Assembly (NCBI GenBank): GCA_003144275.1
Contig: NJBF01000009.1
Coordinates: 62,594-94,593 of the forward strand
Length of the DNA stretch: 32,000 nucleotides
Source: Candidatus Heimdallarchaeota archaeon B3_Heim
GTDB taxonomy: Archaea > Asgardarchaeota > Heimdallarchaeia > Hodarchaeales > Hodarchaeaceae
Reading direction: 5' to 3'
Below the pieces are notes generated by a model. The model did no database searches and had not been told where the DNA came from. It was given only the letters and a program-made list of their open reading frames with translations. Within the stretch, counting starts at the first letter, position 1. Each line of letters starts with the position of its first letter. Of this stretch, positions 10,600 through 32,000 are shown one piece after another. Both the position numbers and the translations under genes were made by a program.

Positions 10600-13500
10600 A
10601 TGACTTTAGTATCTAACGTTCATAAAGATGAAAGGGATCGAAAACAACCAGTGCTCACGCCCAATGCAATGACTGTATTAGAAAAAAGATATCTATTGCA
10701 AAATGACAGAGGGGAGATCATCGAAACGCCAGCTCAGCTCTTTACACGAGTAGCAAAAGCAATTGCAGCAAATGAATCACGCTATGGGCTTGATCCTGCT
10801 ATAATGGAAAAACAGTACTATGATATGATGGTGAATTTTGAGTTTTTACCGAATAGTCCTACTTTAATGAATGCAGGAACAAAAATCAACCAGTTATCGG
10901 CCTGCTTTGTTTTACCCATAGAAGATGATATGACTTCGATCTTTCAAGCGATAAAGAATGCGGCAGTGATTCACAAGTCAGGAGGAGGGACTGGGTTCTC
11001 ATTTTCACGATTGAGACCTACTAATGATAAGGTACAAACTACTGGAGGAGTAGCGTCAGGACCAATCTCTTTCATGACAGTATTTAACTCTGCTACTGAA
11101 ATTATAAAACAAGGGGGGTGTTTATCAGCTGAAAGCTATATTAGGACTAAAAATGGAGTAACAAAAATTGGAAATCTACTGGATTGTCCGCCCATGGGAG
11201 AAAATTTTCCCAATGAGCTTGTTTTTGATGGAGATGCATATAATAACGCGTTAGTTTCAATAGATAATGGTTTAGCAGAAGTCCTCAAGCTTAAAACAGA
11301 ACTTGGCATAGAAATTGATGTAACACTAAATCATCAGGTTGCTTGCATCAATCAAAATGGAGGAAGAGTCTGGAAAAGCGCCAAGGATGTAAAGGAGGGT
11401 GACTGGGTAGTTTTAGTACTAGGAGGGCACAGTGGGAAAGATGTTCTACTTCCAAGGCTGAAAGAACAACACTTCAATGCATCACCCATTAAGATACCAC
11501 AAAAAATGACTCCTGAACTTGGGGAGATTTTAGGCCTATATATGGCAGATGGTTGTATGAGTACAGGGGGAAGAATAATTTTCAGTGTCGATAACAAAGA
11601 TACAGACCTCATACGAAAAATTGAAGATTTAATGAAGACTAGTTTTAGTTTAAAGATAGGAAGAAAAGAAGATAATGATTCTTGGAGCGATTTAGTGTTC
11701 TATTCTCATGACTTATGCAGATTCTTTGAGAAAATGAATTGGAGAAAGGAATCATCATCGAAGGCTTTTATTCCACATGAGATTTTTTTGTCCTCATCAG
11801 AAGTAGCAAAAGCGTTTATACGGGGTCTTTTTGAGGGAGATGGAAATGTTCATTCAGACGGTTATCCAAGATACTATTCAACATCAAAGAAACTAATAAA
11901 ACAATTACAACAACTGTTGCTTGGATTGAATATTGTTTCTAAATACAATAAACGAGAAAAAGGAAAAGATAGTTTTGGAAAAAAACCAATCTATACTTTA
12001 ATGATAAATTCTGATCGTAATATTCAAGTCTTTAAAAAGGAAATTAACTTCTTATCAAAGAGAAAAAAAGAGATGTTAGATACAAGATATCATGAAAAGG
12101 CTTTCGAACAGAATGATATAATACCAAACCAAGAAAGAAGATTGAAAAGTCTTTATACATACGTTGGGAGAGGATCAGGAAAGGGAAGAAAAAATAGAGG
12201 GGCAGATAGAAGATTTTATCGTGCAATTTATCATTATATATCCGATAACCCGTCTTCTAGAAGAAACCTGACAAGAAAAAGACTTCTGAAGTTAAGAGAG
12301 AAATTTGATATCATTAACAATGATGAGCATTTTACTAGAATTTCGGATCCAAAATATTATTATGCCCAAATTAAAGAAAAACAATGGACTCAAGCCTATA
12401 CGATGGATATAGAAGTCCCTTCTTCAGGAAAGTTTGTTGCTAATGGTGTTTTAGTACACAATCGCCGGCGTGGAGCAAACATGGGAGTATTGCGTGTAGA
12501 TCATCCTGATATCCTAGAATTTATTGAATGCAAGCAAGATCTACAGAAATTAAATAATTTTAATATATCCGTGGGTTTAACAGAAGCATTTATGAAAGCA
12601 GTACTTTCTGATACCGATTATCCTTTGATAAATCCCAGAAATAATGAAATAGCTGAAAAGCTCAATGCCCGTACAGTCTTCGAGAAAATAGTCAATATGG
12701 CATATAAATCCGGCGAACCAGGAATACTCTTCTTAGATCAGATAAATGCAGCAAATCCCACTCCTCATATAGGAGAAATCGAGGCAACTAATCCATGTGT
12801 AGCTAAGGATTCATTAATATCAACAGAAAAAGGCATATTAAATATCTTAGAAGTTCCTAATGTTATTAAGACTGCTAGAAAAGGTCTATTTAACTTAGAG
12901 ACTAAAGAAGGATACTCCATTAAGCTCACTTCTGATCATAAAGTTTTAACTCCGAGTGGATGGAAAGAAGCTAAAGACTTACAGGTTGATGAGAAAATCT
13001 GCCTCCAAAGAAATAAAGGAGGATTTGGGTCAGAAGGCAATCAAAAAATAGGACATATTTTGGGGTGGTTTGTAGGAGATGGTTGGACAACTGGAAAGGA
13101 TGGTAGAGCGGTTCTAGCATTCTATGATAAAGATAAAGGAGAACTCTCTGAATATTATGCAAATATCGTTAACGAGGAGCTAAATGCTAATGTTTCTGTC
13201 ATCAAAATTCCTCAAAGAGAAGAAGTAAAATCTGTCAAGATCCTTAGACTGCTCGAGGAGTGGGAAGTCGAGAAAAAGAAGATATCTGCGAGGCTCCTTG
13301 AATCATCTGAGAGTTGTCAAAGAGGGTTTATACAGGCAATTTTTTCGGCTGACGGATCCTTTCAAGGTACTCTGGAAAAAGGTTATAGTGTCCGATTAGC
13401 TCAAAGTAATCTTCCATTACTCAAAAAAGTTCAGCTAATGCTCCTTAATTTCGGAATTGCTTCGAAACTGTATAAAAACCGAGGACCCAAGGGAAAATCT

Positions 13501-15273: not shown

Positions 15274-15300
15274 TGTAGTATATTCGTACCAAAAGGAGTT

Positions 15301-15481
15301 AACCACTGATCTGACTTTTACCATAAAATTACACTGGGTGACCATAAGCTTGTAGTGAGGGACGATAAATTACACAAGTGGTAGCTTTTTGTTCTCATAA
15401 GCTTGCATTGGGTAGCACGGAATGTTACCATATGTTTGCACTGATGGTAGCTTTTTATTCTCATAAGCTTGCATTGGGTAG
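15301..15481 (+). repeat. Left-end array: 36-bp terminal repeat plus six ~21-bp boxes
   Basis: Boxes start at 15320 (ACCATAAAATTACACTGGGTG), 15341 (ACCATAAGCTTGTAGTGAGGG), 15362 (degenerate), 15394, 15427 and 15460. A 36-bp unit GGTAGCTTTTT(G/A)TTCTCATAAGCTTGCATTGGGTAG is duplicated at 15380-15415 and 15446-15481. Confidence 0.93.
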
Positions 15482-15612
15482 ATCGTAAGTGAGGGTACAC
15501 TGAAGGAAGGGTACTCCTAGGAAAATATGTGACTCTGGAGATAGAGATAAATCATCTGGATTGTTTTCTTACTCATAATTATGAAATTTGCTGATTTTCA
15601 GATCAACATTAC

Positions 15613-15858
15613 ATGACTGGAATTTCACGCAATTACATTGAAGGAAAAGAAAAGTATAGGAAGATAGTCCTGAAAGATAAGAAAAAACATGAGCAAATAA
15701 AGGGAAAGAAAATTATATCATATTTGGAAATTATGATAAAAGAAGGAATTGGTATTACTATTATATCAATTCATAGACAAACAGGTATGTCATTAAGGTA
15801 TTTAAAAAAACAAGAAAACAAAATCTGGATTAAGAAAACGATTAATCAACTCTCATAA
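15613..15858 (+). CDS. Small basic HTH protein, DUF6262/Tn554 TnpC-like
   Basis: KIISYLEIMIKEGIGITIISIHRQTGMSLRYL...IKKTINQL resembles the I..AI..L...G..IT...VA..AGVS..LY pattern; first gene inside the left end. Confidence 0.5.
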   Translation: MTGISRNYIEGKEKYRKIVLKDKKKHEQIKGKKIISYLEIMIKEGIGITIISIHRQTGMSLRYLKKQENKIWIKKTINQLS

Positions 15859-15969
15859 TTTAGATTGTGTAAAGATTTAAAAATTCAATATATTTGAGAT
15901 GATGCGTAAGGGCGTAATCGATATTCTTGTAACGAGGACTAAGAGTGCAAAGGGATTGAGAGCAGAGCA

Positions 15970-16614
15970 ATGAATCCAAACCTTCCATTACATTCAAGAT
16001 CGTTGAAAATGAATTGGAAATGGGTACAAAACCTTGGAAATAACGCATGTTTTGCATCTTGTGTCCTTGTTTGTATACGATATTTAAATGCACAGTTAAA
16101 GAGGGAAGACCGTTTTAAAATAACACGAAAGATGAGAAGAGAATTACGTAGAACAAAAAATTTTCCTGTCTTGTCATCTGGAGTTAATGAAAGAAAAACT
16201 CTGCGAATTATGGAAGGTTTCTCAGATTTTCTTAAATTTGAAACTGATTCTCTTAAATCAGTAAAAGACTTACATATTTTAATGCTCCTAAAAACAATTA
16301 ATCCGATAATAGTTGTTTGGGATACCTCATATGGTCAAATAGGCTTAGAATCAACGAGTCATGCTAATATTGTTTATAATACAGATTTTGAAAGGGAAAT
16401 AATTTATTTGATTGACACAAGAAGTACATTTGATCCCCCGATCGTGCCTGTAATCATGGAAACTTTTACGAGAGGATGGCAAAGAACGGAAAACCTTACG
16501 TATATCTTATATAGCAAGGTGGATCCTCCCCTAAAAGTTGTGGATAAACGATTTGCAAAAAACTCTATACAAAATCTTCCTAATTTCTTTAAATCTGAAA
16601 ATATTAAAAAGTGA
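15970..16614 (+). CDS. C39-like papain-fold cysteine peptidase, stand-alone
   Basis: Ordered Q-C-H-D residues: WVQNLGNNACFASC, SHANIVY and IYLIDT. Confidence 0.72.
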   Translation: MNPNLPLHSRSLKMNWKWVQNLGNNACFASCVLVCIRYLNAQLKREDRFKITRKMRRELRRTKNFPVLSSGVNERKTLRIMEGFSDFLKFETDSLKSVKDLHILMLLKTINPIIVVWDTSYGQIGLESTSHANIVYNTDFEREIIYLIDTRSTFDPPIVPVIMETFTRGWQRTENLTYILYSKVDPPLKVVDKRFAKNSIQNLPNFFKSENIKK

Positions 16615-16632
16615 ATAGGTTGTTGATATATA

Positions 16633-17691
16633 ATGAGTAGAATGGAACATCATAATCCTACCAACAAGAAACTTTTAGAAATAAAGGAAATTAAACTAAC
16701 TTTTTTGGATTATGGGGTACAGGTTAATAGAGGTATTAAAAGAGATATTACCAGACACATTGCGAAGTATTATGGGCATAATATCCGTGCAAGAGAGCGT
16801 ATTTATGATTCTCAGTATAATAGATATGCAGTTCCTTTAGATGCAATTCTATTAAATGAAGTTAGAGCATATTCGGGGAAAACAAAATTCTTTCAAATTT
16901 CCTTGAAAAACGTTGGTTCTATTATTATCACGGATGAAGAAAAAATAGATAGATCTGCAACGACTTCGCCTGCTAACCTAAATTCTGCAATAAAACAGAA
17001 ATTTTGGGCTTTTAGAGAAGATCTTTCATCATTTATTCTAAAAGAAAAGCAAGATATTTGGGGAAAAATCCCTAGAATTGCTACTTTCATGAATCCTCTT
17101 TTTGTCGCAATCAATCGGCTTGTAAACTATCAAGAAGTTCCTGTTTCATTCTGGAAACAATTGGAAGAAGAAAAAGAAACAAAACATTGGAAATACATAC
17201 AATTGCTAAGCCAGTTATCAAAATCCTATGTCGTTATTAAAGACGGAAAAACGTTCATAGGGGAGGAGTTAGAGCGTTTAATCGAGAAATATCAAGATTC
17301 TTCAAAAGTGTCTGAAGTAGTGGCAGGAATAATATATGCAGAGAGATTACAAGATTTAGTTCATGATTTCCAATTGCGAAGTATAGCTAATTACGTTTAT
17401 TTACCAAGAACTTATTATTCAGATGCCTTAGACTATGGTGAAAACATTCGAGTACCTGAAAAACATCTTTTACGAAAACACTTTCTCAATAATTCTAGAG
17501 GAACTTATCAGGAGAAACATATGATTTATTTAGAAAATACGTTATCAGAATTGGTAAATCGAAAATGCCTAGAGAAAGAAGAGAAAAACAAGAAAAAAGT
17601 GGTTTTTGGAGAAGAAGATCTTTGGCAGCGACTATACAATCATAGAGAACAAGTTCTCGGACAGGTAGAGGTGGCGGAGGTAATTTCTTGA
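16633..17691 (+). CDS. Hypothetical protein (352 aa), possible C-terminal winged helix
   Basis: Long ORF 18 nt after the peptidase; no family recognised. Confidence 0.75.
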   Translation: MSRMEHHNPTNKKLLEIKEIKLTFLDYGVQVNRGIKRDITRHIAKYYGHNIRARERIYDSQYNRYAVPLDAILLNEVRAYSGKTKFFQISLKNVGSIIITDEEKIDRSATTSPANLNSAIKQKFWAFREDLSSFILKEKQDIWGKIPRIATFMNPLFVAINRLVNYQEVPVSFWKQLEEEKETKHWKYIQLLSQLSKSYVVIKDGKTFIGEELERLIEKYQDSSKVSEVVAGIIYAERLQDLVHDFQLRSIANYVYLPRTYYSDALDYGENIRVPEKHLLRKHFLNNSRGTYQEKHMIYLENTLSELVNRKCLEKEEKNKKKVVFGEEDLWQRLYNHREQVLGQVEVAEVIS

Positions 17692-18269
17692 AAAATCATA
17701 TCTTGGATGATGATATTTATTCTTGCTATAGCCTTACAAGAGATCTTAAAATTTCACCTGAAGATGAGGTAAAAGCTTTAGAAGACTTTTTGAAGTTTTT
17801 TAACTTAGATTATGATGTAGAAAACACAAAGCGTTTGGGAGAAATAATTAATGATTCTTTGTCCCTAATACATTCACCAGAATTTGAAGATGCTCTTGAA
17901 GAACTTAGCCAAATATCATCAGAGATAGTATATATTGGGAGCTCAATTCCTTTAGATTTAGCTACGGCAAAAGAGTTAGTTGCCGTAATTCTTGCCGTTG
18001 CTGATGCTGTTGGAAAAATAGGTATAGCTAGCTGGGGTATTAAAAAATTTGGAGATTTATTTGCAAAGGATATTTATGAGAAGGTAAAAGAAAAATTCCT
18101 TGGAGGGAAGAACAATAATCAATTGGAAGAGAAGAAGGTCTTACGTCTCTATCAAGAAGCTGAAAGAGTTGTTAGGACTGAAGAAGGAAAAGAGTTAGTC
18201 GAGAAGATTTCTTTTCTTTATGAATTAACTCGACCTGAATCTACTTCAGATGATACAAAGAAGCGATAA
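17688..18269 (+). CDS. Hypothetical protein (193 aa) with acidic N-terminus and central hydrophobic/amphipathic helix
   Basis: TTG start overlaps the upstream TGA (TTGA coupling); segment LVAVILAVADAVGKIGIASWGIKKFG. Confidence 0.7.
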   Translation: MKNHILDDDIYSCYSLTRDLKISPEDEVKALEDFLKFFNLDYDVENTKRLGEIINDSLSLIHSPEFEDALEELSQISSEIVYIGSSIPLDLATAKELVAVILAVADAVGKIGIASWGIKKFGDLFAKDIYEKVKEKFLGGKNNNQLEEKKVLRLYQEAERVVRTEEGKELVEKISFLYELTRPESTSDDTKKR

Positions 18270-20966
18270 ACACGCAATTTTGAATGATAACTTTGTCTAA
18301 AAATAACAATTTTAATTATAGAAAATCAAAAGAAATGATCTTATACAATATTATATTGGGGTTTATCCATGGAGAATAGTTTATTTAATATTGGTAAAAT
18401 ATTTGATGCTTGCGATGATGAGCCAACCACCGCACAAATCGATGTTGCAAAAGAATGGGCAAAATTAGTTACTGATAAGAAACTAGAGGATGAAGTGAAG
18501 AACTATTTCAAGTTTGGAAACAAAATTCTCCTCAAACTTCTAGGCTATGATGAAGACGACATTGGATTTGAGGAGAGTGCTGGTAGAAAAAGAGTTGAAT
18601 TTTCTATTAAAGACAATACAAATAAGTTGAAACTTGTAATTGAGTTAAAAGGTCAAAATGTAGATTTGGATAAACCACAGAAACGTGGTAAGAAATTTGA
18701 AAGGTCTCCAGTTGACCAAGCTTTTACTTATGCGATCGAAAATAAAGGTGTACAATGGATTATAGTTAGTAACTACAAAGAAACTAGGTTGTACAATTAC
18801 TATCATAAGAAACGGTTTATTTCTTTCACAGCTGATGATCTGTTAGTAATATCCAACTTGAAGATTTTTCTTTGTCTTCTTTCCAAAACAAATTTCTTGA
18901 TCAATAAATTACCCGATAAAATTCTGAATGATACTCTATTAGTAGATAAGCAATTCACTAAGGATTTTTATAAACTATACCATGCTACAAGATTAGAAAT
19001 AGCACGACAAATCCAGACCGGTAATCCAAGTTTCTCAATTAAGAAAATTGTGTCTTTAACGCAACTAATCCTAAATAGAATTATTTTTATTGCATTTACA
19101 GAGGATAGAAATCTTCTTCCATCTGAAACTTTGATAGAAACAATCTTACCTCCTATAAAAAGTAGAGATGTTTCTAAAACACGTCAAGAAATATGGAGAA
19201 AGTTGAACCTATTATTCGATGATATTAACAACGGAAAAGAAGACAAGGATATATCGCAGTACAATGGAGCAGTTTTTAAAGAGGATCTCAGCTTTTTGAA
19301 AATAGTCGATCTTTTCTCCCATTCAGAAAAGAAGAATATCGCTTATAATCACGGTTTTGATTATTCTGAGATTGAAAAACTGATTGGTGAATATAAATCT
19401 CTGAACCCTATATACAAGAATTTTCTATTGATTAGTCAAACTAATTTCAAGGATGAGAGATCAATAGATATTCTGGGGCATGTTTTTGAGCAGTCGATAT
19501 TGGATATTGAAAGAATTGCCGATATCGGCCTAGATAAGATTATCGAGGAAACCTTAAGCAGATCGAAAAAGAAAGGAAAGAGTAAAAAACGAAAAAGTGA
19601 GGGTATCTTCTATACACCAGAGATGGTAACTCTTGAAATAACGAAAACTGCACTTATCCGCTATTTATCAGATGATGATAAAATCACAACCATAGAAGGA
19701 TTGATAAATGAATTTGAAGGAAATATTACCTCTCTCGAAGACAAACTTACTAACATCAAAATTACTGACATTGCCTGCGGATCTGGAGCCTTTCTAAGCC
19801 AATTGACCAATCTTATTCTTGAATTATTCGAAAAAATACATCAATTGAAAATTGACCAAGGATTTTTTGTTGACGATCCTCTAAAAGAATTTTTTGATCC
19901 CTCACTAAAAAAGATGGAAATTGTTACAAATAATATTTTTGGTGCTGATATCAGCTCACAAGCAATTGAGATTGCTAAACTCTCCCTATTCCTTAAAATT
20001 GCACATAAAAAAGACAAGCTTCCTGATTTAGATTCTAATTTTACTGTTGGAAACAGTGTTATATCGGATAGCTCTGTTGTAACTGATGCAATTGATTGGG
20101 AAAACCTTACTCCCAATAAATTCCATATAATCGTTATTAATCCACCTTACATTCCGACTGAAATGCTACCAGAAGGAGATCGCTCCTATTTTTCTGGTAA
20201 TTTTGCGGTTTCAGGAAAATATGACACTTCTGTTATTTTTTTACAAAAAGCTTTAGGATTGTTGGAAGATGGAGGGGTTTTGGGAGCAATTGTACCCTTA
20301 ACATGGCAAACTGGAGTGAATTACAGATTATTTAGAGAAGAGATCTTCAAAATTTCGAAGATAATAACATTGATCAATCTTCCGTTTGATATTTTCCCAG
20401 ATGCATATGTTGATACAGGAATTGTAATATTAGAAAAGACCCCACCGTCACAAGATGATAGTTTCCGTGCTTATCAGTTTGATAAGCGAGCACGTGTTGC
20501 TACTCTGCACATTGACGAATGGGAAACGATTCCGTTCCAATATGTGCTAGAATATGAGGGTAAAAACGTATTTACTACAAAAGCTTTCTATACGTTTCAA
20601 AATAAGATTAAGCTCCTTTTTGAAGGGGGTAAGGCCAAGAAACTTGGAGACTTAACTGTATCAAGGCAGGGTTATTACGCTAGTAGACTTCAAACGAAGA
20701 AAACTCAACCTGATATTAATCACATCCCCTTCTATACAAAGGGCTTAGCCTTGCGTCATTTCGTAATCCCCCACTTAAGTGAATTTGTAGATATAAATGA
20801 ATGGGAAAGACTCAAACCATTTTATTGTACCCCAAAATTGTTCATTCGTAGAATAATTAATAGACAGGATAGATTAATGGCGTTCTATGTTGAACCAGAC
20901 CTATTAACAACAAAAGATTATAATCCATTTGTTCTAATAAAAGAGTCTGAGTGGTATAAAAGCTTG

Positions 20967-22385
20967 CTCGAATGATGAGTAAGTCACCATCGGGGAGTAA
21001 TGACGGAGCTGACCCACAAGCATTTAACTTCTGAACCAAATGTAATTCTATGTCACCAAAACAAGAAATACACCCGTTAGAAAACGAACTCCGTCACTAT
21101 CCTTCACGGACAGTCCAAGTTTTTAAAACTACCCATCTGACCCGTATTCTCAGGAAACACATTCACGAGACAGATGCCGACAAAAATCGGAAAGAATTTA
21201 GCTGTGAACAGTGGATTAAAAGTCTTTTCTTGATGCAGATTCATAAGTTCGAAGCGGTACGACCCTTTGTTCGTCAGCTCGAGCAAAACAAATCTTGGCA
21301 AGCGATTTGCGGTTATCAGGGAAACATTCCGACTCAAGGGCAGTACTCCCGAAGAATTCCTGATCAGCGCGTTCAGGAGGTGTTAGTACGGATGTTCCAG
21401 ACTTATCAACATTTAATTCCCTTGACACACAAGCAATTACCTACTACGCCCTCGAAGGCTCAATTTACCCTCCTTCAACAGGGGTATTATCCATTTCGGA
21501 TGGATTGTACCAGTTTAAAGTTATCTCCAGACCGTTATCCTTATGCTACCTGGGGGTACGTAGCCAGCAAAAAACAGCCTTTCCCTAGTGCGCGAATACA
21601 CACAGTTCAGGAAGGAATTCACGGATTCATTGCTAATTATGGACCATCGGGAGGCCATGAACATGAATCTCCCGTAGCTGAGGTACTATTGAATGAAACC
21701 GAAGAAATCAGTAGTTGGCTGTCTATTAATTCCATTGCAGATCAACCTCGACCATTTATAATATTTGATCGGGGATACTGGAAGTTAGCTCGTTTTCAGG
21801 ACTTAGATACTCGAGGATGGGGATGGAGCATTCCTTGGAAGAAACGAACTCTAATTGGAGTTCAAATAGAGATATTAAAATTTCCTCAAGCTGAGGATGA
21901 TCCCCTGGAAATTCTAGTCTGGGGATCAAACACTGAAAAACCGTGGCGTCGAATTATTGGTAAGCTAAATTCATCTAGCGATAGTTTCTGGGATGTATTT
22001 ACCAATGATTTGTCCCTTCCTCCCTTAACGGTGCTTCAACTCCAAAAGGAACGCTGGGAGATCGAAACTTTGTTTCAATGGATTAAACAACACACCACAA
22101 TTAAACGTCCGTTGGGGAAATCTTGGATGAGTTTTATCACCCATTGTCTGTTAGTGACCTTATTACAGATCATCCTCTTTTATTATCTCCTCCTTCTTGG
22201 ATTTACTCGTTGGCAAGACCATTTAACTTTATTACTAGAAAATTTACGTTATTCAGACTTAGAGCTTTGGCCTGATTGTTACTTGATAGCAGAAAGGTTG
22301 TAATTAATGTCAGGTGATAAAAATGTGATGATATAATCCATTAGACTTAAAAAGGCCAGTGAAGTGAAGTTACTCATCAATCGAG
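20967..22385 (+). mobile_element. IS4-family insertion sequence, 1419 bp
   Basis: 16-bp TIRs CTCGAATGATGAGTAA (20967-20982) and TTACTCATCAATCGAG (22370-22385) with one mismatch; perfect 9-bp TSD AAAAGCTTG at 20958-20966 and 22386-22394. Confidence 0.95.
21050..22303 (+). CDS. IS4-family DDE transposase
   Basis: N-terminal FSCEQWIKSLFLMQ (DUF4372-like), RMDCT, IFDRGY and ERWEIETLFQWIKQH motifs. Confidence 0.92.
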   Translation: MSPKQEIHPLENELRHYPSRTVQVFKTTHLTRILRKHIHETDADKNRKEFSCEQWIKSLFLMQIHKFEAVRPFVRQLEQNKSWQAICGYQGNIPTQGQYSRRIPDQRVQEVLVRMFQTYQHLIPLTHKQLPTTPSKAQFTLLQQGYYPFRMDCTSLKLSPDRYPYATWGYVASKKQPFPSARIHTVQEGIHGFIANYGPSGGHEHESPVAEVLLNETEEISSWLSINSIADQPRPFIIFDRGYWKLARFQDLDTRGWGWSIPWKKRTLIGVQIEILKFPQAEDDPLEILVWGSNTEKPWRRIIGKLNSSSDSFWDVFTNDLSLPPLTVLQLQKERWEIETLFQWIKQHTTIKRPLGKSWMSFITHCLLVTLLQIILFYYLLLLGFTRWQDHLTLLLENLRYSDLELWPDCYLIAERL

Positions 22386-23011
22386 AAAAGCTTGAGTTAC
22401 TATTACCTCTCGGCAATAATCAATTCAAAACTAATTTCCTTTATCTACATTAATACCTCTACAATTGCACAAAAAGATGATTTCCGACAAACCGATCTTA
22501 AAACTTTAAGAGATTTGCCAATTATTCTTCCTAATGAAACTGCTAAAGAATCGCTTGAAAAGCTAGCTGCTGAACTTGAGGAAAACTGGAAATCATTCCA
22601 TGTTGAGAAAATACGAGTGGGAGCTGTTCTGAAATCAAAATATAAAGTAAAAGTAGGGATAAGGATTGCGAATCTTCATAAATATACTAATGAAGAAGTT
22701 GCAGGAGATTTTCCCAAGCTATCGTTGAAAGAGACTGAAGAGCTTTTAGAATATCTAAATGAAAAAAGAGAATTAATATCTTCAATTAGTGAGACAATTA
22801 TTGATCTAGAGAACAAAATCGACAATCTAATTTATCAACTGTATGAATTAACTGAAGAAGAAACCCTGATTGTAGAAGATAGAATAAAATTAATTATTTA
22901 ACCATTTATTGTTTATACACTTCAATGAAACAGAAATAAATCATCCTTTAATTATATGTTAAAAAAACTACTTCGTGCAAGGACTTGGGAAGTAGGAGAG
23001 AGTAATTCAAC

Positions 23012-24157
23012 TTGAGAAAACCACAGAAAGCGACTCGTTCTATATTTTTTGCGAATCTAGGTAATGATCCAAAAAATCAATTGAGTAAAATTGCTAAAAT
23101 AGGAATCACAGATGTGGTTAGGAAATTCACTGATCTCAGTAAAATACCCGAAGGTAATTATCTCATTGTTATGAAGAGATGGAGTGGAAATTCATTTGAT
23201 GGAGTCCCGATTGCAAATGCCCGTTATCCATTAGGGGGCGGATACATTTTATTATGTGACCAGAATTGCATCGTGATTGATCCCGGAATAAACTTTTTTC
23301 AAGCTTTTCAGGAAATGGGGTTTAAACCTGCTGATATTGATGTGATTCTAATAACACATAATCACCTAGATCATCGTAAAGATTTAACTAGAATTTCCTC
23401 TGCATTTTTGAGATCATTTAATGCATCTAAAAAACACAAATCAATAATTCCTAAAAAAATCACATTATATCTAAATAATAATACACGAGTAACTTTATCA
23501 GCAGCTTTAGATCATATTAATGCGGAAATACTTGAACCTGTGAACGATTTTGCTAACTTGCGTGGGGATTTCATTAAATTTAAGCCAGTTGCTGTAGATC
23601 ATCCTCAAGAGGTAACCCATCCAGATTTTCAAAACGAACCTTCTTATGGCTTTATATTCAAGATTCAAGTACCTAAAGATTTGATTTTAGGTATAACAGG
23701 AGATACGAGATATTTTGAGGATTTAGAAGAAGAATTTAAATCTGTATCTGTATTAGCAACTCATATTGGGTCTATAGATCAATCAAACAATCATCTCAAA
23801 TTAGAGGGAGTACTCAAACTTGCAAACAGTCTGAAGCGATTAACACACCTTATAATGACTGAATATGATTACGACGAATTTCATTTAGAGAATAATCGGG
23901 TAAAAACAACGGATTTTATTAAATCAGAATTAAAGAAAAAATCTGTACGAGTGATCTCTGGAGATGTATCTTTAAGAATGAATTTGAATAACAGGAAAGT
24001 ATTCGTACCTTGCTCAATCTGTAATAAATCAATGTTAAACAACTTTTTATACTGTGTAAATAAATGTAAGAAACCAATTTGGTTTGACATCAAAAATATT
24101 GTAGAGAAAGAAGAAGTAGATGAATTTGGGCAAGGGATTCATTATTCTGTGAAATAG
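23012..24157 (+). CDS. Metallo-beta-lactamase-fold hydrolase with Cys-rich C-terminus
   Basis: GGGY..IVIDPG, THNHLDH (HxHxDH), VDH, ITGDT and THIG motifs; C-terminal CSIC...CVNKC. Confidence 0.85.
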   Translation: MRKPQKATRSIFFANLGNDPKNQLSKIAKIGITDVVRKFTDLSKIPEGNYLIVMKRWSGNSFDGVPIANARYPLGGGYILLCDQNCIVIDPGINFFQAFQEMGFKPADIDVILITHNHLDHRKDLTRISSAFLRSFNASKKHKSIIPKKITLYLNNNTRVTLSAALDHINAEILEPVNDFANLRGDFIKFKPVAVDHPQEVTHPDFQNEPSYGFIFKIQVPKDLILGITGDTRYFEDLEEEFKSVSVLATHIGSIDQSNNHLKLEGVLKLANSLKRLTHLIMTEYDYDEFHLENNRVKTTDFIKSELKKKSVRVISGDVSLRMNLNNRKVFVPCSICNKSMLNNFLYCVNKCKKPIWFDIKNIVEKEEVDEFGQGIHYSVK

Positions 24158-24180
24158 CTTACTTATTTAGAGAGATTGGA

Positions 24181-25332
24181 TTAAAGATTATCGTTGGAAT
24201 ATTGACACCGGATTATTGCTTCTTTATTGGCAAATCCGATAATACGGTTGTCATCACGTATAGGAATCTCATCTAAATTATTTTCTGCTAAGAAACTTGC
24301 TACCGTAAGCCATGTACCATCTTTCGGGAAAGGAACAATTTTTTCGGTTATATCTTCAACTATGGTTATAGGTGACTTACCTTGAAATCGTGCATAGATA
24401 ATATTATGAGTTTTTTCTGAAGGGATAATGCCATGATACTCCTTATCTCTAAAAACCATGAAGAGGTTAGAATAACTGATAATCTCATAAGGTTTTTCAG
24501 CCCAAATTTGTATTAAGTCTTTTTTCTCGACGCTTTCTATTAGTTCTAGTTCCTCTATTGATCTCGAGTATAGGGCATGTTTATTTACAAGAGCATCTTC
24601 GATCTCCCCAGATAGAATATTGAGAAATCTTGCTAATCCTTTCCCTTCTTTAGATAGTTCATATCTTGATTTTTTCCGTTTAACAAGAAATTTCTCACCA
24701 ATTAAATCCTTTAGATGGCCATCTATTAAACTAGATGTTGGAGTTTTTGACTGCGAAAGTTTATTTGGAACTAGATGAGTAAACACCTCAACCCCTCTTT
24801 CTATCTGTGAAAAATTAAATGGAGGGTTCTGGAAAAGAGTTAAAAGGATGAAAAATTTTATATCCACGGAACAGATTGAAATTATTGTTGATAGATACTC
24901 TTTGACATCTTCAATTGGCATCGATGACATTATTTTATTTGAGATTTGCTCATTTATGACTCTTTTTACCTGAATCACGGTATCATCAGGAGTAAAATAC
25001 TTAGTTATTTTATTATATGAAAATAATTTACTTTCAATCATTCTCTTCTTGTGATAACTATACGTGGATTTTCCTTTTCCTTCGTCGAAAAGCATTCTGA
25101 GATTAAAATTGTTTTCCTCAGATTCTAATTTTTTTGGATTTATAATGAAGTTCTTAATTGGTTTAATTTTCCTAATCTTTTTAAGAAAGTCAATGACTAG
25201 CCGGTAGGTCATCATTCTTTGAGTAAATTCTGGATTCTTTTGTTTCTCCTCCAAAAGTAAGATTGACTCATCATTCTCTACTAAAAGATTCTTTTCAATC
25301 ATTAAGTGTTCTGAATCTTTTTTGTTTTTCAT
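24181..25332 (-). CDS. Putative regulator with winged-helix domains and a C-terminal CBS-like pair
   Basis: KSTYSYHKKRMIESKL and SSLIDGHLKDLIGEKFLVKRKKSRYELSKEG (wHTH-like); NNLDEIPIRDDNRIIGFANKEAII (CBS-like). Confidence 0.65.
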   Translation of the reverse strand: MKNKKDSEHLMIEKNLLVENDESILLLEEKQKNPEFTQRMMTYRLVIDFLKKIRKIKPIKNFIINPKKLESEENNFNLRMLFDEGKGKSTYSYHKKRMIESKLFSYNKITKYFTPDDTVIQVKRVINEQISNKIMSSMPIEDVKEYLSTIISICSVDIKFFILLTLFQNPPFNFSQIERGVEVFTHLVPNKLSQSKTPTSSLIDGHLKDLIGEKFLVKRKKSRYELSKEGKGLARFLNILSGEIEDALVNKHALYSRSIEELELIESVEKKDLIQIWAEKPYEIISYSNLFMVFRDKEYHGIIPSEKTHNIIYARFQGKSPITIVEDITEKIVPFPKDGTWLTVASFLAENNLDEIPIRDDNRIIGFANKEAIIRCQYSNDNL

Positions 25333-25516
25333 TTTTACCTCACTTCTTCTGAGTACATATGTTACTTAGACCTTAATAAAGATTTCGAATATGACTAACT
25401 CAATTACAATAGAACTATGTTATCTCAATTTTATAGAATTACTAGGTCTAAAGAATCTTTTATCGCCTAAATTTCATTGTCCTTTTTTTCCAAGATTTCG
25501 ATGGTACACCTTCGAA

Positions 25517-25717
25517 GCTACCCAGTGCAAGCTTATGACAGCAAAAAGCTACCGGAATGCAAACAATTGGTCACCTAGTGCAAAGATATGATCCACTTTT
25601 TGAGTGACTTATTTATTCTCCTATACCCCTCAGTGCAATTTTATAGTAAAAGTCAGATCGGTGGTTGTGACTTTCACTTCGGAATTGCACTGAGTGACCA
25701 TAAGCTTGCACTGAAGT
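25517..25717. repeat. Right-end array: four inverted boxes, a 12-8-12 palindromic core and two outward boxes
   Basis: Minus-strand boxes at 25519-25539, 25551-25571, 25572-25592 and 25627-25647. Core GTAAAAGTCAGA-TCGGTGGT-TGTGACTTTCAC (25646-25677). Plus-strand boxes at 25676-25696 and 25697-25717. Confidence 0.92.
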
Positions 25718-25870
25718 ATACTTTCTAAGATGGGAAGGATGTCTATTCCCTCAATCTACCTAGCTTGATCAGTTCTTCTCGCAACTCTCTTATTCCGTCA
25801 TTAATTTGGTCAATCTGTAAATCTATAAATAATTAGTGACGTTATAATTCTAATAGGAGAAATCTTAATC

Positions 25871-26002
25871 TTGTATAAAAAGAGAAAAGATAAAGAGAAG
25901 AGTTTAGACTATTTGAAAAAAAATAAGAAGAAAAATGATCATGATCTACTTGTTGCTTACAGCACATCAAAGATGATTGATCCCCCTGGGCAAGGTGGAT
26001 AG
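25871..26002 (+). CDS. Possible 43-aa Lys-rich peptide ending IDPPGQGG
   Basis: TTG start with AGGAGA upstream; translated by hand and below the ORF-track cutoff. Confidence 0.3.
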   Translation: MYKKRKDKEKSLDYLKKNKKKNDHDLLVAYSTSKMIDPPGQGG

Positions 26003-26637
26003 TAATTTCTTCCATAAGCCTGTTAATTTTGAAATCGCACCAATCCAAGCTATTTGAATTTCATTTGTCATCATAATTATTGCCCCTGACTTTTAAATCA
26101 AGATTGTCAAGTAAAGTGAAGGTTTGATCCAAATATTTTTTCTCTAGCGACTCCCATGGCAATTCAAAGGTAGGAATTACAAAAAGTAACAGCTATTCTG
26201 AACCAATGGATCTATTCTATAAACTTTTTCTTAGATAGTGAATTTCATACCTTTTTTAGTTCATTTAACAATCATACCAAGACATAAATTGCGTTTGTTT
26301 GTCTTTAAAGATGAAAATCGCGTATCAAGGCGTTTTAGCTGATTCTAGTGTATTACTATGAATAAGTAAATTAATAGTATCTTTTCTTTTTTCTTTAATG
26401 ATTGAATGGTTCTTTGTATTCGTTGTTTCTTACACTCTTCTTGGTATTTTTTATTCTCTAAGATAAGCTTCCTATTCTTTTTATAGCCTCAAAAATAAAC
26501 ACTATAGACCGAAAATGATATAATTAGAAATAAATTATTAGTCATAGAAACGTTTAGCTTTATATAGTTATTACACCTTTTAATGACAAATATTTAACTG
26601 TTCTCGAAAGCATAAGAAAAAGAAGTCGATTAAAAAT

Positions 26638-26961
26638 ATGCCCGATATTGTAGTAACTTGGGGTTTAGACAGAGGGGAATTTTGGGATCATGATGTGACA
26701 GATGAAGAAATTGCTACTGAATGGGGGCCTTGGGAGTTAAAAACACGTCTACCTGAGCTTCATTTAATGAATAAAGTATATGTTTGTCATAATAAAGAAA
26801 TTAAAGGATATAATACAATAAAAAAAATATGGGTTGATGAGTATAGGACTCGAATGAAAATTTTCTGTAAAAGCTGGGTTAAAGTTGATCCTATCCCCAT
26901 AAGAAAATGTGGTCAGAGTTTTAAATACTTTGAAAAAATTAAGCGGTTAGGAGCAAAGTGA
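26638..26961 (+). CDS. Small PUA-superfamily (ASCH/EVE-like) protein
   Basis: KVYVCHNKEIKGY..I..I and C-terminal W..VDPIPIRKCGQSFKY resemble the ASCH-like P.P.kG.QGF.Y motif. Confidence 0.5.
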   Translation: MPDIVVTWGLDRGEFWDHDVTDEEIATEWGPWELKTRLPELHLMNKVYVCHNKEIKGYNTIKKIWVDEYRTRMKIFCKSWVKVDPIPIRKCGQSFKYFEKIKRLGAK

Positions 26962-26971
26962 GTTCCCATTT

Positions 26972-27307
26972 CTAACTTTTCGGATATTGTTGATTATAGG
27001 GTGGTTGATAATAATGAATCAATTGTGCCTCTGCTTGAGGTGTTTGATTCTCTGGTAAAATGTACCACGAAACGGTTCCAAATGGAATGTAATCATTCTC
27101 GTAATAATGGCTTCTTTCCCAATCCTTTAGTCGTCTTTGTAGATTGTTACTCATACCAATATACTGAAGAGTATCTCCCCAAAATAACGCATAGACACCA
27201 GATCTTTATGGAATTTCATCAAGATCTTTTTTTTCGAAATATTCCCCACAATCAATTATTTTAAGTCTTAAATTATCGAGCTTCTGTTTAATTCTTACCC
27301 TTGACAT
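26972..27307 (-). pseudogene. GIY-YIG nuclease with an in-frame TAA at codon 34
   Basis: From ATG 27307: ...DLDEIP*RSGVYALFWGDTLQYIGMSNNLQRRL...AEAQLIHYYQPPYN. Stop at 27206-27208. Confidence 0.8.
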
Positions 27308-27679
27308 GTTACAAACTCGCTCTTCAGGTTAATTATTGCTCCTCAATTCTTGGTTGTATACCCTTTTAGTGTGATAGTTTAAAGTATGGTTCATTCTTTC
27401 TTATTAATATATTTTATTTTCATTGAATCTTATTTACTCTGAAATGTCCTTAGACTTTAAATTACCTATTAGTTAACAGAGTAATCGTAACTTTCTCAAG
27501 AAAATGAAAAAATTTACATGTAAATCTGAATCATTTCCCGTATGAAAGATGAAAAAGTAATGAGGGATTTATGTTTAAGTTAGTGTTTCGATATCAAGAG
27601 GGAAATACTAACTCGATGATCTTTGTGAGCTTATTAAATCTTAATTCATTTCTTTAGTGTAGCAATCATTGGCTGTATC

Positions 27680-27692
27680 GAAAGATTTAATA
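27680..27692 (+). promoter_or_regulatory. Candidate BRE/TATA promoter for a leaderless tnpB transcript
   Basis: GAAAGA followed by TTTAATA, beginning about 24 nt upstream of GTG 27710. Confidence 0.4.
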
Positions 27693-27709
27693 CTATATCG
27701 TGGTAAAAA

Positions 27710-28945
27710 GTGACTGATCAGGTTCGAGTAATTCGTACAGAACGGATATGGTTGAAATCCAATCCCATTTTGGGGCATCTATGTCATATATCTAAGAATC
27801 TTTTTAATGAGACTAATTATCTTGTCAGACAATCCTATTTTACGAGTGGAAAAAGGATAAAAGGAATTGATTTAAGAAATAATCTTCAGGATTCTCTTAA
27901 TTTCCGATCATTGCCACAGGTAACTGCTTTAAAAATAATTGCAGTTGTCGAAGAAGCATGGAAGTCCTTTTTTGCAGCAGTAGCAGATTGGAAGCGCCAT
28001 CCAGAGAAATATTTCAAGCAACCACGACCTCCTAGATATAAAGATAAAGCTGGTGAGTTTCTACTCTGGTATTCAAAAGCACAAATTAAATCTATTGCTG
28101 ATCTCCTCGTGATCCCTCAAGCATCAAACCTAACATTGAAACCACGAATTGCTTCATATCAAACAATGTTGGGAATCCGTATTATTCCTCAAGGTGTGGG
28201 GTATATTGCAGAGATTCTTTATGCTAAATATGTTCCAGCTATACCCAAGGGTAAACCAACTCGTGTTGTGGGCATTGATCTAGGTTTAACTAACCTCATA
28301 ACTATGGTTAACAACATTGGCAAGGAACCAATTGCTGTGAAAGGTGGGGTAGTTAAATCAATTAATCAATACTACAACAAAGAACGAGTACACTTACACA
28401 GTATTTATTCAAGACAAGAAATCGGTAATGGAGACAAACTTCGAAAATTAACCGCGAAGAGAAAACGAAAACTTAGGAATCATTTTCATGAAGTCAGTAG
28501 CAGTGTTACAAGGTGGTGTCAGCAACATTCTATTGATGCTGTAGTTATTGGACATAATAAACTCTGGAAACAACACATTAATCTTGGTAAGAGAGTAAAT
28601 CAAAATTTCGTATCAATTCCTTTTGATTGGTTTCTGAATCAGCTTAAATACAAACTGAATGATGTTGGGATTCGTGTGATTTGTGTTAATGAATCCTACA
28701 CTAGTAAGTGTAGCTTCCTAGATGTCGAATCAATTTCACAAAAACCAACATACAAAGGAGAAAGGATAACACGGGGATTATACCTATCTTCCCAAGGTAG
28801 AATCATTAATAGTGATGTGAATGGGGGATATAATATCCTTAAAAAGGCAGTCCCGAATGCTTTTTCGATGAATGAAACAGTGGACGGGATAGAGGGTGTA
28901 TGGTTACACCCAGTGAGATTAAAACAAACGTTGGCAACAAGTTAG
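27710..28945 (+). CDS. tnpB: IS200/IS605-family TnpB RNA-guided nuclease, solo (no tnpA)
   Basis: HISKNLFN N-terminus, PRPPRYK, RuvC-I GIDLG, VNESYTSKCS, RuvC-III NSDVNGGYNI and the GIEGV.LHPVR tail. Confidence 0.93.
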   Translation: MTDQVRVIRTERIWLKSNPILGHLCHISKNLFNETNYLVRQSYFTSGKRIKGIDLRNNLQDSLNFRSLPQVTALKIIAVVEEAWKSFFAAVADWKRHPEKYFKQPRPPRYKDKAGEFLLWYSKAQIKSIADLLVIPQASNLTLKPRIASYQTMLGIRIIPQGVGYIAEILYAKYVPAIPKGKPTRVVGIDLGLTNLITMVNNIGKEPIAVKGGVVKSINQYYNKERVHLHSIYSRQEIGNGDKLRKLTAKRKRKLRNHFHEVSSSVTRWCQQHSIDAVVIGHNKLWKQHINLGKRVNQNFVSIPFDWFLNQLKYKLNDVGIRVICVNESYTSKCSFLDVESISQKPTYKGERITRGLYLSSQGRIINSDVNGGYNILKKAVPNAFSMNETVDGIEGVWLHPVRLKQTLATS

Positions 28946-28954
28946 TTGATTCAA
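28894..28954 (+). ncRNA. 3' part of the putative omegaRNA scaffold / IS right end
   Basis: Perfect hairpin GGGTGTA-TGGT-TACACCC (28894-28911) and TCAA at 28951-28954, the usual IS605-type right-end tetranucleotide. The 5' boundary was not determined. Confidence 0.55.
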
Positions 28955-29155
28955 TCTCACAAAAGCGTCCAAAGATGCTATAACCCGTATTTAAATCTTT
29001 CGAACTGCTCCCTCCTCTGAAACTGTCGTCTTTTTGCTATCTTTTCTCTGTTAACCAGCTATTTCGTTCTTTGGTGATTCGAGAAGCTTTTTTCTTGATT
29101 TTTTTTCTCATTTTTGAATATTTAACCAATCCTAGTCAATCAATATTGAAGAGAA

Positions 29156-31909
29156 ATGACAAAAGGAATCAATATTGAACAATGGAATTATCGTCGAAAT
29201 CGGGTGGTTCTTCGGTCTACAACTGATAGAAATGACTTTTCCTCTGCTTTTTCATTCATGACTTGTGGTCCCATTGATGTGAATCATTTATTAAACCGAT
29301 ATACTCTTCCAGCTCGAAAGCTCACAAAGGATGAATGGTCTTCACGATCATTTGATCAATTACACACAAGCATCTCTTCTGACTATCTATCAAACCTCCC
29401 TTCTCACTGGCATCCACAAAAAATCTTTGAGGAAATCATTACTTCTCCTCACACAGATTTTGTTGTTAATGCGAAAACGGGTCAGGGAAAAACAACGTTT
29501 TTACTTCAATCCAGCCTCGAGAGAGTTATCCTCCACCCCTCTAACTACATCTTATCCTTTACTTATGCAAAAAGCCTAGGATCCACACAACAACAAAAAT
29601 TTCATTGGCTCAGACGCAAACTAGTTCCTGATTTGGGAAGGTGTGAATTATATTTTGGTGGAGATCAGGCGACAAAACGACGACTTCGTAACCCAGGGAA
29701 AAATAAGAAACCATTTGCAATGCTTACCACTACTATCCAGTCTTACTCAGGATCATTTGCACATTTTTCCCCTTTGATTCCAAATACTAAGGCTGGATAT
29801 TTAAATTCTGCTCCTGAGGTCTGGGGAAACCGCAGGAAAAATCCTCAATACCGATGGTATGAAAAACTCCGTTTACCGACAGTCTTACTTATTGATGAAC
29901 TTGATTCTCTTCCCACTCATTTAGTACCCTGTTTAGCACACTTGACGCGTGTTTTGAAATGGCATGATCCAACAATACAGGTCATTTTATCTTCAGGGAC
30001 ACTAGGAAATCCAGAAGAGGTAGCGAAGCACTTTTTTACTAACAGCTCAAACGTGAAAGTGCTTTCAGGAAGTGGACAGCGCGGTAAACTTGAAATAAAT
30101 GTCTATAAAGAAGGGCAAGAGGACAAAGTCGAAATTCTGCTTCAGAAAAGCATTCAGATGATTAGAAAACATATTGATCACGAAATTCAACGATATAATG
30201 ATGATAGAAGTTATCGGCCACCTAAAGTTATTCTATTTTTGAACCATAAGACGAAAATTAATATCAAAAAGGTTACTGGACGGTTTTATAAACATGTAAC
30301 GACTGTCCATGGAGGGATGGAAAGTTCTGAAGTTATTAAACGATTAGCTGACTTTGATAAAAACCCAAAGTTGATATGTTTAGTCGCTACTGAACTGATT
30401 CAAGCAGGGATTGACCTACCAGATGTGAAATGGGGGATCTTTTATGGATTACCTGTCAACGCGGAGCAGCAACGAAAGTTTATGCAATTACGTGACCGGA
30501 TCAATCGAAATCCTGATGAGGAAGGCCGTTTAGATGTCATATTACGTGAAAGAAACAAGGTTGAACAATCCTTACTTACTTCTAATAGCACTCAAAAACG
30601 ACAAGAGTATATTCTACGTGAAAAACCAATTTCTTTACATATCCCCTATTATACACCGATTAGCTTACGTTATTGGATAGTTATGGGTATTCTCAATGGA
30701 TTTCCTGATGTTTTAAAGTATATAGAAGAAGATTTAACAGCTATGGACTGCAAATGGGATTACCATCATGATCTAAGAGATGCAGTTATTGATCTGGTTT
30801 TATCCCGAGCGGTAAGAATAGGCTTTGATGGAATTTTGTTACCTGCCTCTGGAACGAAAGAGTGGATATACAAATTCATATGTTTGGGGACAAATCCGTC
30901 TTATAAAGTAATAAAGGTTGACACTGTGGACGATACTGAAACACAAATTGGCCATATTGATGAAGTAACGATGCTGCGTCATCATCTTGAAGGTCAAAGC
31001 TTTCCATTAGGTGATTTTAATTATCTCGTTAAAAGGATAGAACTCGCAGGCAAAAACCGACAGGGAAAAATATATGTGATTCCAGCTCCCCCTGAATTTC
31101 AATTTATGGAGAATAAAATTGTATCGTCAACTCAACGAAGTCGACTTCATGCTTATGTAAAAGAACAGGGCCTAGCTTTAATGACGATAAATATTTCTCA
31201 TCAACTTAAGGAAATCGATGCCCGTACAAAGATTCCTAGACATATCGAACAATATCATTCTTCCTTATCGCATACTGCTGTTTTTCTTAGAACAGATCCT
31301 GAAATGGATGAAGAGGAATCTAACTCTCTTATTACTCAACTGCAATTGGAACTTACCGAATCGCTATCTCTAGATCCTATCTTGTTTGACACAAGACGTT
31401 TCTTTGATGAAGAATTGGGTGAAGGAATCCTTTTTCTTGATAAAACAGGCCATGACCTTGCACGAATGGCTTATTATTTTTTCAAGGACCATTCGTCGCT
31501 ACTCTCAAAGGTCAGATCATCAAAAATACACAATCGTGGGTTTTTAGGTGCAGGATGTGCACCCCCAAAATGGTTAGGGAGATTCCGTTACAAATATGCA
31601 ATGAATATCGTGGCGATCCCTGATCTTCGACTGGGAACTTTGCAACAGGCTGTCCGTTCGCAGTTCCTTCGAGAAGAATTCGTGGGGGTTCGGACTCACG
31701 ACCACCTGTCCATCCGCGTCGATCTTCGCCTCGAAGCGCCCGCGGTACAAACGACACACGCCCGGCTCAAGGTCGAGCTCAACCGGCTGCTGACCTCTTC
31801 CTTCACGGGCCACGACAACTACATGCGCAAGCTGCCCGAGCTCCTGAAAACCGTGAGAGAGTTGAAAGAAAGGATTGCTCGTCTTGAAGCGCAATCAGGG
31901 AACGATTAA
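29156..31909 (+). CDS. Divergent SF2 DEAD/DEAH-like helicase (MrfA/Hrq1-like); the last ~75-100 codons probably do not belong to the native gene
   Basis: AKTGQGKT, LIDELD, SSGT, TVHGGM, ELIQAGID and motif VI-like QLRDRINR. GC rises sharply near the 3' end. Confidence 0.72.
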   Translation: MTKGINIEQWNYRRNRVVLRSTTDRNDFSSAFSFMTCGPIDVNHLLNRYTLPARKLTKDEWSSRSFDQLHTSISSDYLSNLPSHWHPQKIFEEIITSPHTDFVVNAKTGQGKTTFLLQSSLERVILHPSNYILSFTYAKSLGSTQQQKFHWLRRKLVPDLGRCELYFGGDQATKRRLRNPGKNKKPFAMLTTTIQSYSGSFAHFSPLIPNTKAGYLNSAPEVWGNRRKNPQYRWYEKLRLPTVLLIDELDSLPTHLVPCLAHLTRVLKWHDPTIQVILSSGTLGNPEEVAKHFFTNSSNVKVLSGSGQRGKLEINVYKEGQEDKVEILLQKSIQMIRKHIDHEIQRYNDDRSYRPPKVILFLNHKTKINIKKVTGRFYKHVTTVHGGMESSEVIKRLADFDKNPKLICLVATELIQAGIDLPDVKWGIFYGLPVNAEQQRKFMQLRDRINRNPDEEGRLDVILRERNKVEQSLLTSNSTQKRQEYILREKPISLHIPYYTPISLRYWIVMGILNGFPDVLKYIEEDLTAMDCKWDYHHDLRDAVIDLVLSRAVRIGFDGILLPASGTKEWIYKFICLGTNPSYKVIKVDTVDDTETQIGHIDEVTMLRHHLEGQSFPLGDFNYLVKRIELAGKNRQGKIYVIPAPPEFQFMENKIVSSTQRSRLHAYVKEQGLALMTINISHQLKEIDARTKIPRHIEQYHSSLSHTAVFLRTDPEMDEEESNSLITQLQLELTESLSLDPILFDTRRFFDEELGEGILFLDKTGHDLARMAYYFFKDHSSLLSKVRSSKIHNRGFLGAGCAPPKWLGRFRYKYAMNIVAIPDLRLGTLQQAVRSQFLREEFVGVRTHDHLSIRVDLRLEAPAVQTTHARLKVELNRLLTSSFTGHDNYMRKLPELLKTVRELKERIARLEAQSGND
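31820..31909 (+). other. LpxD-like C-terminal coiled-coil tail of bacterial origin, in frame with the helicase ORF
   Basis: YMRKLPELLKTVRELKERIARLEAQSGND* overlaps the lpxC start, as in lpxD-lpxC operons. Confidence 0.5.
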
Positions 31910-32000
31910 AGAACCCGTTAAGTTTTCCGGGATCGGGCTGCACACCGGCAAGGAGATCCACGTGCGCCTCAAGCCGGCCGCCCCGGATACGGGCGTGGTC
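31884..32000 (+). CDS. lpxC: UDP-3-O-acyl-GlcNAc deacetylase N-terminus (partial, bacterial)
   Basis: TTG start after AAAGGA; translates (M)KRNQGTIKEPVKFSGIGLHTGKEIHVRLKPAAPDTGVV. 31921-32000 is 55/80 GC. Confidence 0.82.
   Translation, partial: MKRNQGTIKEPVKFSGIGLHTGKEIHVRLKPAAPDTGVV

Follow-up and report, generated by a model that had tools for sequence, protein, structure and literature searches.

The locus raised the question of what lies at positions 25646-25677 of the window, the whole stretch of 32,000 nucleotides that was analysed, where two short arms face each other in the manner of a loxP site. The right core consists of GTAAAAGTCAGA (25646-25657), TCGGTGGT (25658-25665) and TGTGACTTTCAC (25666-25677), and its two outer segments are complementary at 10 of 12 positions. 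At the left end, ACCACTGA (15302-15309), which in reverse complement matches the right 'spacer' at seven of eight positions, is followed by TCTGACTTTTAC (15310-15321). The letters and coordinates given in the original prediction for the 12-8-12 core, the left arm and the inverted spacer were all correct, and the direct repeat it described from beyond the right core onto the left end was recovered as an ungapped match of 79% identity (repeat D2, 15312-15358 and 25668-25714). The reading placed upon these letters, namely attL- and attP-like sites of a tyrosine recombinase bounding an invertible cassette, was not borne out. Instead, the site is very probably a junction of Tn7-like transposon ends that lie in tandem where nrdJ provides an attachment site, in the genome of a Hodarchaeota (Asgard) archaeon. 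The two 12-bp arms would be the distal tip of one element (element A) and the proximal tip of an older one (element B), standing face to face.

The homology at the junction is far above chance, and the 12-8-12 core is a small part of it. Three inverted repeats, I2 (36 nt, 92%), I1 (46 nt, 85%) and I3 (36 nt, 89%), link 15301-15481 with 25508-25666, and the two ends of element A pair over about 210 bp as imperfect inverted repeats (alignment A1). Within these ends a box of about 14 bp, TTRCAYTGRGTRRC, recurs. Strict matches to the box numbered seven in the 32-kb window, against a chance expectation of about 3.0 over its whole length, and all were confined to 15329-15482, 25517-25638 and 25685-25698 and pointed inward, away from the nearest tip. 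With the degenerate copies visible in alignments A1, A3 and A4 included, there are about six boxes at the nrdJ-side end of A and about four at its far end. They are presumed to be TnsB-binding sites. An Rfam scan of both end regions gave only sub-threshold chance matches.

Element A is accordingly bounded at about 15307/15310 and 25657/25660, with a length of about 10.35 kb. Its gene-proximal end, of the Tn7 'right' type (15310-15500, plus strand), begins with the tip TCTGACTTTTAC and carries direct boxes, among them those at 15329, 15403 and 15469, with degenerate copies in alignments A1 and A3; it aligns with the gene-proximal end of a related element on metagenome contig SDBT01001747.1 (SDBT). 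The distal end, of the Tn7 'left' type (25500-25657, minus strand), has the tip GTAAAAGTCAGA as read on the plus strand, with boxes at 25517, 25570 and 25625. Beyond it, a remnant of the gene-proximal end of element B (25666-25716, plus strand) starts with the tip TGTGACTTTCAC and retains two boxes, including that at 25685; it was recognised from repeat D2 and from alignment A3 with ends from SDBT and from a related genome, G004. The decayed rest of B occupies 25717-26198, and the far end of this element is lost.

Ends of the same family were found in other genomes of the genus, which were represented, besides the window's own genome (G000), by the Hodarchaeota MAGs G003, G004, G007 and G012. 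All six ends outside element A begin with TGTGACTTT, namely B, two in G004, one on contig C105 of G012 and two on SDBT01001747. When all ends were aligned, T(G/C)TGAC marked the exact start of homology, and the sequences outside it bore no relation to one another. In G004, the tip TGTGACTTTTAC with two boxes lies 43 nt past the nrdJ stop codon. Next come a 166-bp stretch with 93% identity to window 25853-26017 (within the remainder of B), a degraded copy of the last part of nrdJ and, 36 nt on, a second decayed tip. The G012 contig carries a lone end starting with TGTGACTTTCAC, which is 79% identical to the far end of A over 142 bp; the mean column identity of the three aligned distal ends (A, SDBT and G012; alignment A4) is 84%. 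No protein similarity was detected between the ORFs of A and those beside the G012 end. A box scan of 400 genomes of the phylum gave matches in G000 and G012 only, a scan of 185,579 species genomes with the tip pattern gave real matches in two Hodarchaeota MAGs and 26 other hits that are scattered chance matches in bacteria, and a box scan of metagenomes returned the single contig SDBT01001747.1. When the proximal end of A was searched in its own genome, it matched its own contig only; the distal end was covered there indirectly, by the box and tip-pattern scans.

On the metagenome contig, a small but complete member of the family lies next to nrdJ, at contig positions 3038-6146. The tips read TGTGAC at 3038 and GTCACA ending at 6146, and GAGTA at 3033-3037 and again at 6147-6151 forms a direct target duplication of 5 bp around the element. 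The distance from the nrdJ stop to the box-rich end is 31 nt, and the first gene from the nrdJ side encodes a protein with a Tn7_TnsA-like_N domain (E = 7e-9, 36.6 bits against a cut-off of 26.5). This copy is itself a deletion derivative, which keeps the TnsA part only. No empty site for it was found among relatives.

A word-indexed protein search with the SDBT TnsA-like protein returned only the query itself. In an exhaustive HMMER search, its nearest relatives were TnsA-TnsB fusions of 738-894 aa, with 39-50% identity, followed by TniB. The searches found no autonomous element with these exact boxes and no TniQ tied to this end family, and the regions upstream of the other TnsAB relatives contained no recognisable common tip. 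Among the autonomous TnsAB relatives the closest is L084, where TGATATAACTTTTAC precedes tnsAB and keeps the same register with respect to the shared ACTTTTAC. On its contig (ENA ERZ26802894 NODE_440, 33.5 kb) two Tn7-like elements, L084 and L093, lie in tandem; their TnsAB proteins have 738 and 894 aa, TniB follows in both cases, and TIR, NB-ARC/TPR and helicase cargo is found between the two. Two further loci apparently hold complete Tn7-like gene sets in the same class: L053 (G003 contig C353, 4176-11914) encodes a TnsA-like protein, an rve-type TnsB, TniB and two ORFs of about 510 aa, with three AATAATTGTAA repeats near one end, and L054 (G074 contig C138) encodes an 870-aa TnsA-TnsB fusion, TniB and TniQ.

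These relatives bear directly on the recombinase reading, in which a host tyrosine recombinase would invert a 10.3-kb defence cassette between a pair of lox/att-like sites. Like loxP and FRT cores, the right core has two inverted arms of about 12 bp around an asymmetric 8-bp spacer, and the geometry of the two arms and of the inverted left copy of the spacer does fit such a site; several tyrosine recombinases are also encoded elsewhere in the genome (eight Phage_integrase matches, all on other contigs). However, the arms are the outermost 12 bp of transposon ends of about 200 bp that carry repeated boxes, the left site has no outer arm, the two spacers differ at one position, and in G004 and G012 these tips stand alone, with no second arm opposite. 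The finding named beforehand as incompatible with recombination of this kind, a related copy with TG...CA ends and a direct target duplication, is precisely what the SDBT contig provides, together with its TnsA-like gene. No tyrosine recombinase was found in or beside A or on the contig, and no ORF in 15613-31909 has a Phage_integrase domain; there is thus no cognate recombinase of the kind that accompanies a lox-type core. Inversion by a host recombinase is therefore hardly credible, and the locus illustrates how abutting transposon tips can mimic a lox site, a tempting misreading that is corrected here.

The position of these ends relative to nrdJ was consistent. The gene (10600-15273, plus strand) encodes a vitamin-B12-dependent (class II) ribonucleotide reductase with two inteins (NCBIfam NF006417, 1090.7 bits against a cut-off of 961; TIGR02504; intein-type matches). 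Its stop codon occupies 15271-15273, and the TCTGAC tip of A starts 36 nt beyond. For all five insertions examined, in three genomes or contigs, the proximal end was turned, in one orientation, towards either the stop of nrdJ or its degraded copy, and the distance from stop to tip was 31-43 nt in the four exactly measured copies (A, the two G004 tips and SDBT). The tip of B lies 8 nt past A, and would be roughly 44 nt from the stop with A taken out. The nrdJ 3' end is therefore presumed to be the determinant of the attachment site, and it would be read by TniQ. The TGT...ACA tips, the asymmetric distribution of boxes, the 5-bp duplication, the location of tnsA at the gene-facing end and the fixed orientation, a few tens of bp past the stop, are features of the Tn7 family.

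An empty site was present in G007, the closest relative at this locus, in which 8 bp replace window 15307-26198. The G007 contig is 94% identical to window 14779-15306, then has the 8 bp, and is then 90% identical to 26199-26385 (L041, 537-723), which is the host flank and right limit of the insertion. Arf/Ras-type GTPases and archaeosine transglycosylase are encoded in the syntenic neighbourhood, as would suit an Asgard archaeon. The segment 15307-26198 (10,892 bp) is thus an insertion, made up of A and a 533-bp remainder of B. The original prediction had also allowed for a second element starting at 25666 (TGTGAC...), with the ASCH, GIY-YIG, TnpB and helicase region as its cargo. An element end does start there, but as homology to G007 resumes at 26199, what is left of B is a stump of at most 533 bp; the host flank intervenes between it and the proposed cargo, which belongs to a separate island.

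The content of A is cargo only. From the proximal end it encodes an 81-aa ORF (a weak DUF6262 match, below the cut-off) and ORFs of 214, 352 and 193 aa without a family match (15613-18269, plus strand), followed by a type IIG restriction-modification enzyme of the MmeI/Eco57I type (18369-22901, plus strand; Pfam Eco57I, N6_Mtase and TaqI_C). The latter gene is split by an insertion sequence into a main part (18369-20975) and a C-terminal specificity tail (22392-22901), both on the plus strand and both recognised by PADLOC as REase_MTase_IIG. The interrupting transposase (21050-22303) is assigned to the IS4 family by a Pfam DDE_Tnp_1 match and an NCBIfam IS4 score of 90.4 bits that is below the 115-bit cut-off; the insertion lies within 20975-22392, and its relatives were short contigs in a marine sediment run. 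A metallo-beta-lactamase-fold hydrolase (23012-24157, plus strand) and a 383-aa ORF without an assigned function (24181-25332, minus strand) complete the set. In domain searches, no ORF between the ends of A was a recombinase or a Tn7-type transposition protein, and neither TnsA nor TniQ was detected in this assembly, which is 94% complete. A Pfam search for TniB gave matches in every control genome too, and so was uninformative for this genome.

Element A differs from its relatives in its tips, which read TCTGAC at both ends, compared with TGTGAC in the six related ends. Furthermore, whichever register is taken, the two flanks of A share no direct 5-bp duplication and match only in the palindromic GATC. 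With no TnsA or TniQ detected in the assembly, A is non-autonomous and, given its TCT tips, probably now immobile. Its junctions might reflect remodelling between the arms of a long palindrome, or a non-canonical insertion. The absence of a duplication and the odd tips could also suggest that A is not one mobile unit, and that its ends derive from different insertions or from a rearrangement (deletion or recombination between tandem elements) which left the genes between them as leftovers. Tandem and decayed ends are indeed common at the nrdJ site, as in G004 with its two tips, and the nearest TnsAB relatives include tandem Tn7-like elements on one contig. Against this, the tips of A are 92% identical to each other over 36 nt, TCT included, and are thus closer than the two tips of SDBT; the paired ends show the expected proximal and distal architecture with inward orientation, and the whole of 15307-26198 is missing from G007. 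A composite origin was consequently considered very unlikely.

With A taken as a single unit, the order of events can be proposed. Element B would have been inserted first downstream of nrdJ, and would now be reduced to a recognisable stump of 51 bp and about 480 bp of decayed sequence. Element A would have been inserted next, keeping both its ends with their arrays of presumed TnsB-binding boxes, and carrying the IS-broken type IIG gene, the hydrolase and the unassigned ORFs. Its transposition would have relied on a TnsAB-TniB(TnsC)-TniQ machinery acting in trans, which is no longer seen in the genome. Within the B remnant, 25975-26017 overlaps the start of the degraded nrdJ 3'-end copy that is present in G004; in G004 itself (L011, 9952-10040) the degraded last 40-85 nt or so of nrdJ, together with the spacer of the gene, are found between the two successive tips. 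A 337-nt contig from a marine sediment metagenome matched the non-coding stretch 25858-26194 at about 94%, and this stretch is 93% conserved in G004; the sole ORF in it, on the minus strand, has 68 aa and is doubtful. Of the public runs, one alone contained a twentieth (5%) of the sampled words; its short contigs of relatives matched the insertion sequence, the nrdJ 3' end and 25858-26194, and none crossed a junction.

The inverted repeat of A extends 9 bp past the family tip (I2), and these extra bases include the 8-bp 'spacer'. When A is removed, 15301-15309 and 25658-25666 join to give AACCACTGATCGGTGGTT, which is predicted to fold into a hairpin with a 7-bp stem and a GATC loop (dG -5.5 kcal/mol, z -3.2). 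Small hairpins are found at the same place after nrdJ in two relatives, abutting the tip in G004 and 8 bp before the tip in SDBT. G007 has CCAC at the left stem position, and its own fold is no better than that of shuffled sequences. On the strength of the predicted fold, the hairpins in G004 and SDBT and the CCAC in G007, the spacer and its inverted left copy may together have formed one host hairpin, into which A was inserted; the chances of this proposal seem about evenly balanced. The candidate left half would be AACCACTGA (15301-15309, where homology to G007 reaches 15306) and the candidate right half TCGGTGGTT (25658-25666, delimited by I2 and the predicted fold). Element A would then have landed in the loop of this small hairpin, and B just after it.

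The same nine bases (AACCACYGA) may instead be part of the ends of A, which would then belong to a subfamily with longer, TGA-type tips (TGATCTGAC...). The register of TGATATAACTTTTAC and ACTTTTAC upstream of tnsAB in L084 agrees with such a tip, and fused tnsAB genes occur in some archaeal clades, in one of which TGA tips have been reported (10.1101/2025.07.27.667033); with the longer tip, A would also end exactly 5 bp from the tip of B. On the other hand, the right tip is CGA rather than TGA, the 5-bp flanks (ACCAC and GTGGT) are inverted and not direct, the CCAC at that position is common to G007, and the L084 end is not delimited, the second end of that element not having been found. The longer tip was therefore regarded as a possibility, with a clearly lower probability than the split hairpin. 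A further reading, of distinctly low probability, takes the TCT tips, the missing duplication and the place in a hairpin loop, where the inverted repeat runs on for 9 bp into the flank, as signs that A arrived by a non-canonical route, such as hairpin- or cruciform-directed insertion or a remodelling of ends in archaeal Tn7-like elements. In its broader form, the nrdJ 3' flank of Hodarchaeota would be a hot spot of attachment for two or more Tn7-type end families that are unrelated to each other, with degraded duplicates of the nrdJ 3' end between successive insertions.

The preferred reading, tandem Tn7-like ends beside nrdJ, is concordant with the literature. A bioRxiv preprint of 2025 by Thesier, Hsieh, Schargel, Wingo and Peters (10.1101/2025.07.27.667033) describes Tn7-family elements across archaea, Asgard groups among them, and counts ribonucleotide reductase genes (nrdD in that work) among their attachment sites; for a reconstituted Heimdallarchaeota element, the 5-bp duplication and target immunity were proven experimentally. 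As Tn7-like elements at Asgard ribonucleotide reductase genes are already reported there, the kind is known and the present member is new; the main text of 10.1101/2025.07.27.667033 contains none of the accessions dealt with here. The elements described here resemble those of Thesier et al. in their Asgard host, the TGT tips of the family, the arrays of end boxes, the 5-bp duplication (in the SDBT copy), the TnsA-TnsB fusion with TniB (in the nearest relatives), the insertion in one orientation just outside a ribonucleotide reductase gene, and cargo of the defence or methylase type. They differ in the target, which is nrdD there and the gene of a B12-dependent class II enzyme here, and element A differs in that it has no transposition genes, TCT tips and no duplication, and stands in tandem with an older stump.

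The comparison with Tn7 at attTn7 (glmS) is similar. In both, the box-dense gene-proximal end faces the 3' end of an essential gene at a distance of tens of bp, the gene nearest to that end is tnsA, the boxes of the distal end are fewer and lie farther apart, and a 5-bp target duplication is made. In contrast to Tn7, the host is archaeal, the target gene is another, TnsA and TnsB are fused in the relatives, and the ends have no sequence similarity to those of Tn7. Target immunity of Tn7 would normally disfavour insertion beside an existing end, and block a second insertion beside an intact one, which counts against the preferred reading.

The locus thus adds a class II ribonucleotide reductase gene (nrdJ) to the attachment sites, and one which is repeatedly used within one genus. 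It also adds a transposase-less derivative with restriction-modification cargo and unassigned, possibly defence, cargo, and an instance of decayed ends piling up in tandem. The end boxes and the nrdJ 3' target are of direct use for reconstituting transposition, as has been published for the Heimdallarchaeota element.

A second, unrelated end family was observed directly 3' of the nrdJ stop on G003 contig C313 (L040, 15667-15733) and on G012 contig C100 (L025). It starts with a TGA-type tip and has three direct repeats of 21-22 bp, TGACAnTAAATTTGTCA, with a spacing of 22 bp; behind the G003 copy lies an ORF of 546 aa that matched no family. The far end of this family was not found within 2.4 kb.

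To the right of the insertion, the window departs from G007 at about 26382, and the continuation of G007 returns on contig C38 of G000 at 7797, with 95% identity. A direct repeat of about 22 bp lies at both junctions (ATGAATAAGTAAATTAATAGTA and ATGCATAGGTAAATTAATGGTA, 19 of 22 positions identical). The region to the right of 26358-26385 is a separate island, at least 13 kb long and flanked by these direct repeats, with part of it on C38 (1-7820, L092). The island encodes the ASCH, GIY-YIG and TnpB proteins, a 917-aa helicase, a 1339-aa ORF and a weak RAMP-like ORF, and is absent from both G007 and G004. No integrase was found in the C38 part of the island or in the part within the window, to 31909. 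The GC content of window 31000-32000, at the end of the contig, is 0.46, compared with about 0.33 elsewhere, and this segment may be a chimeric contig end or foreign DNA.
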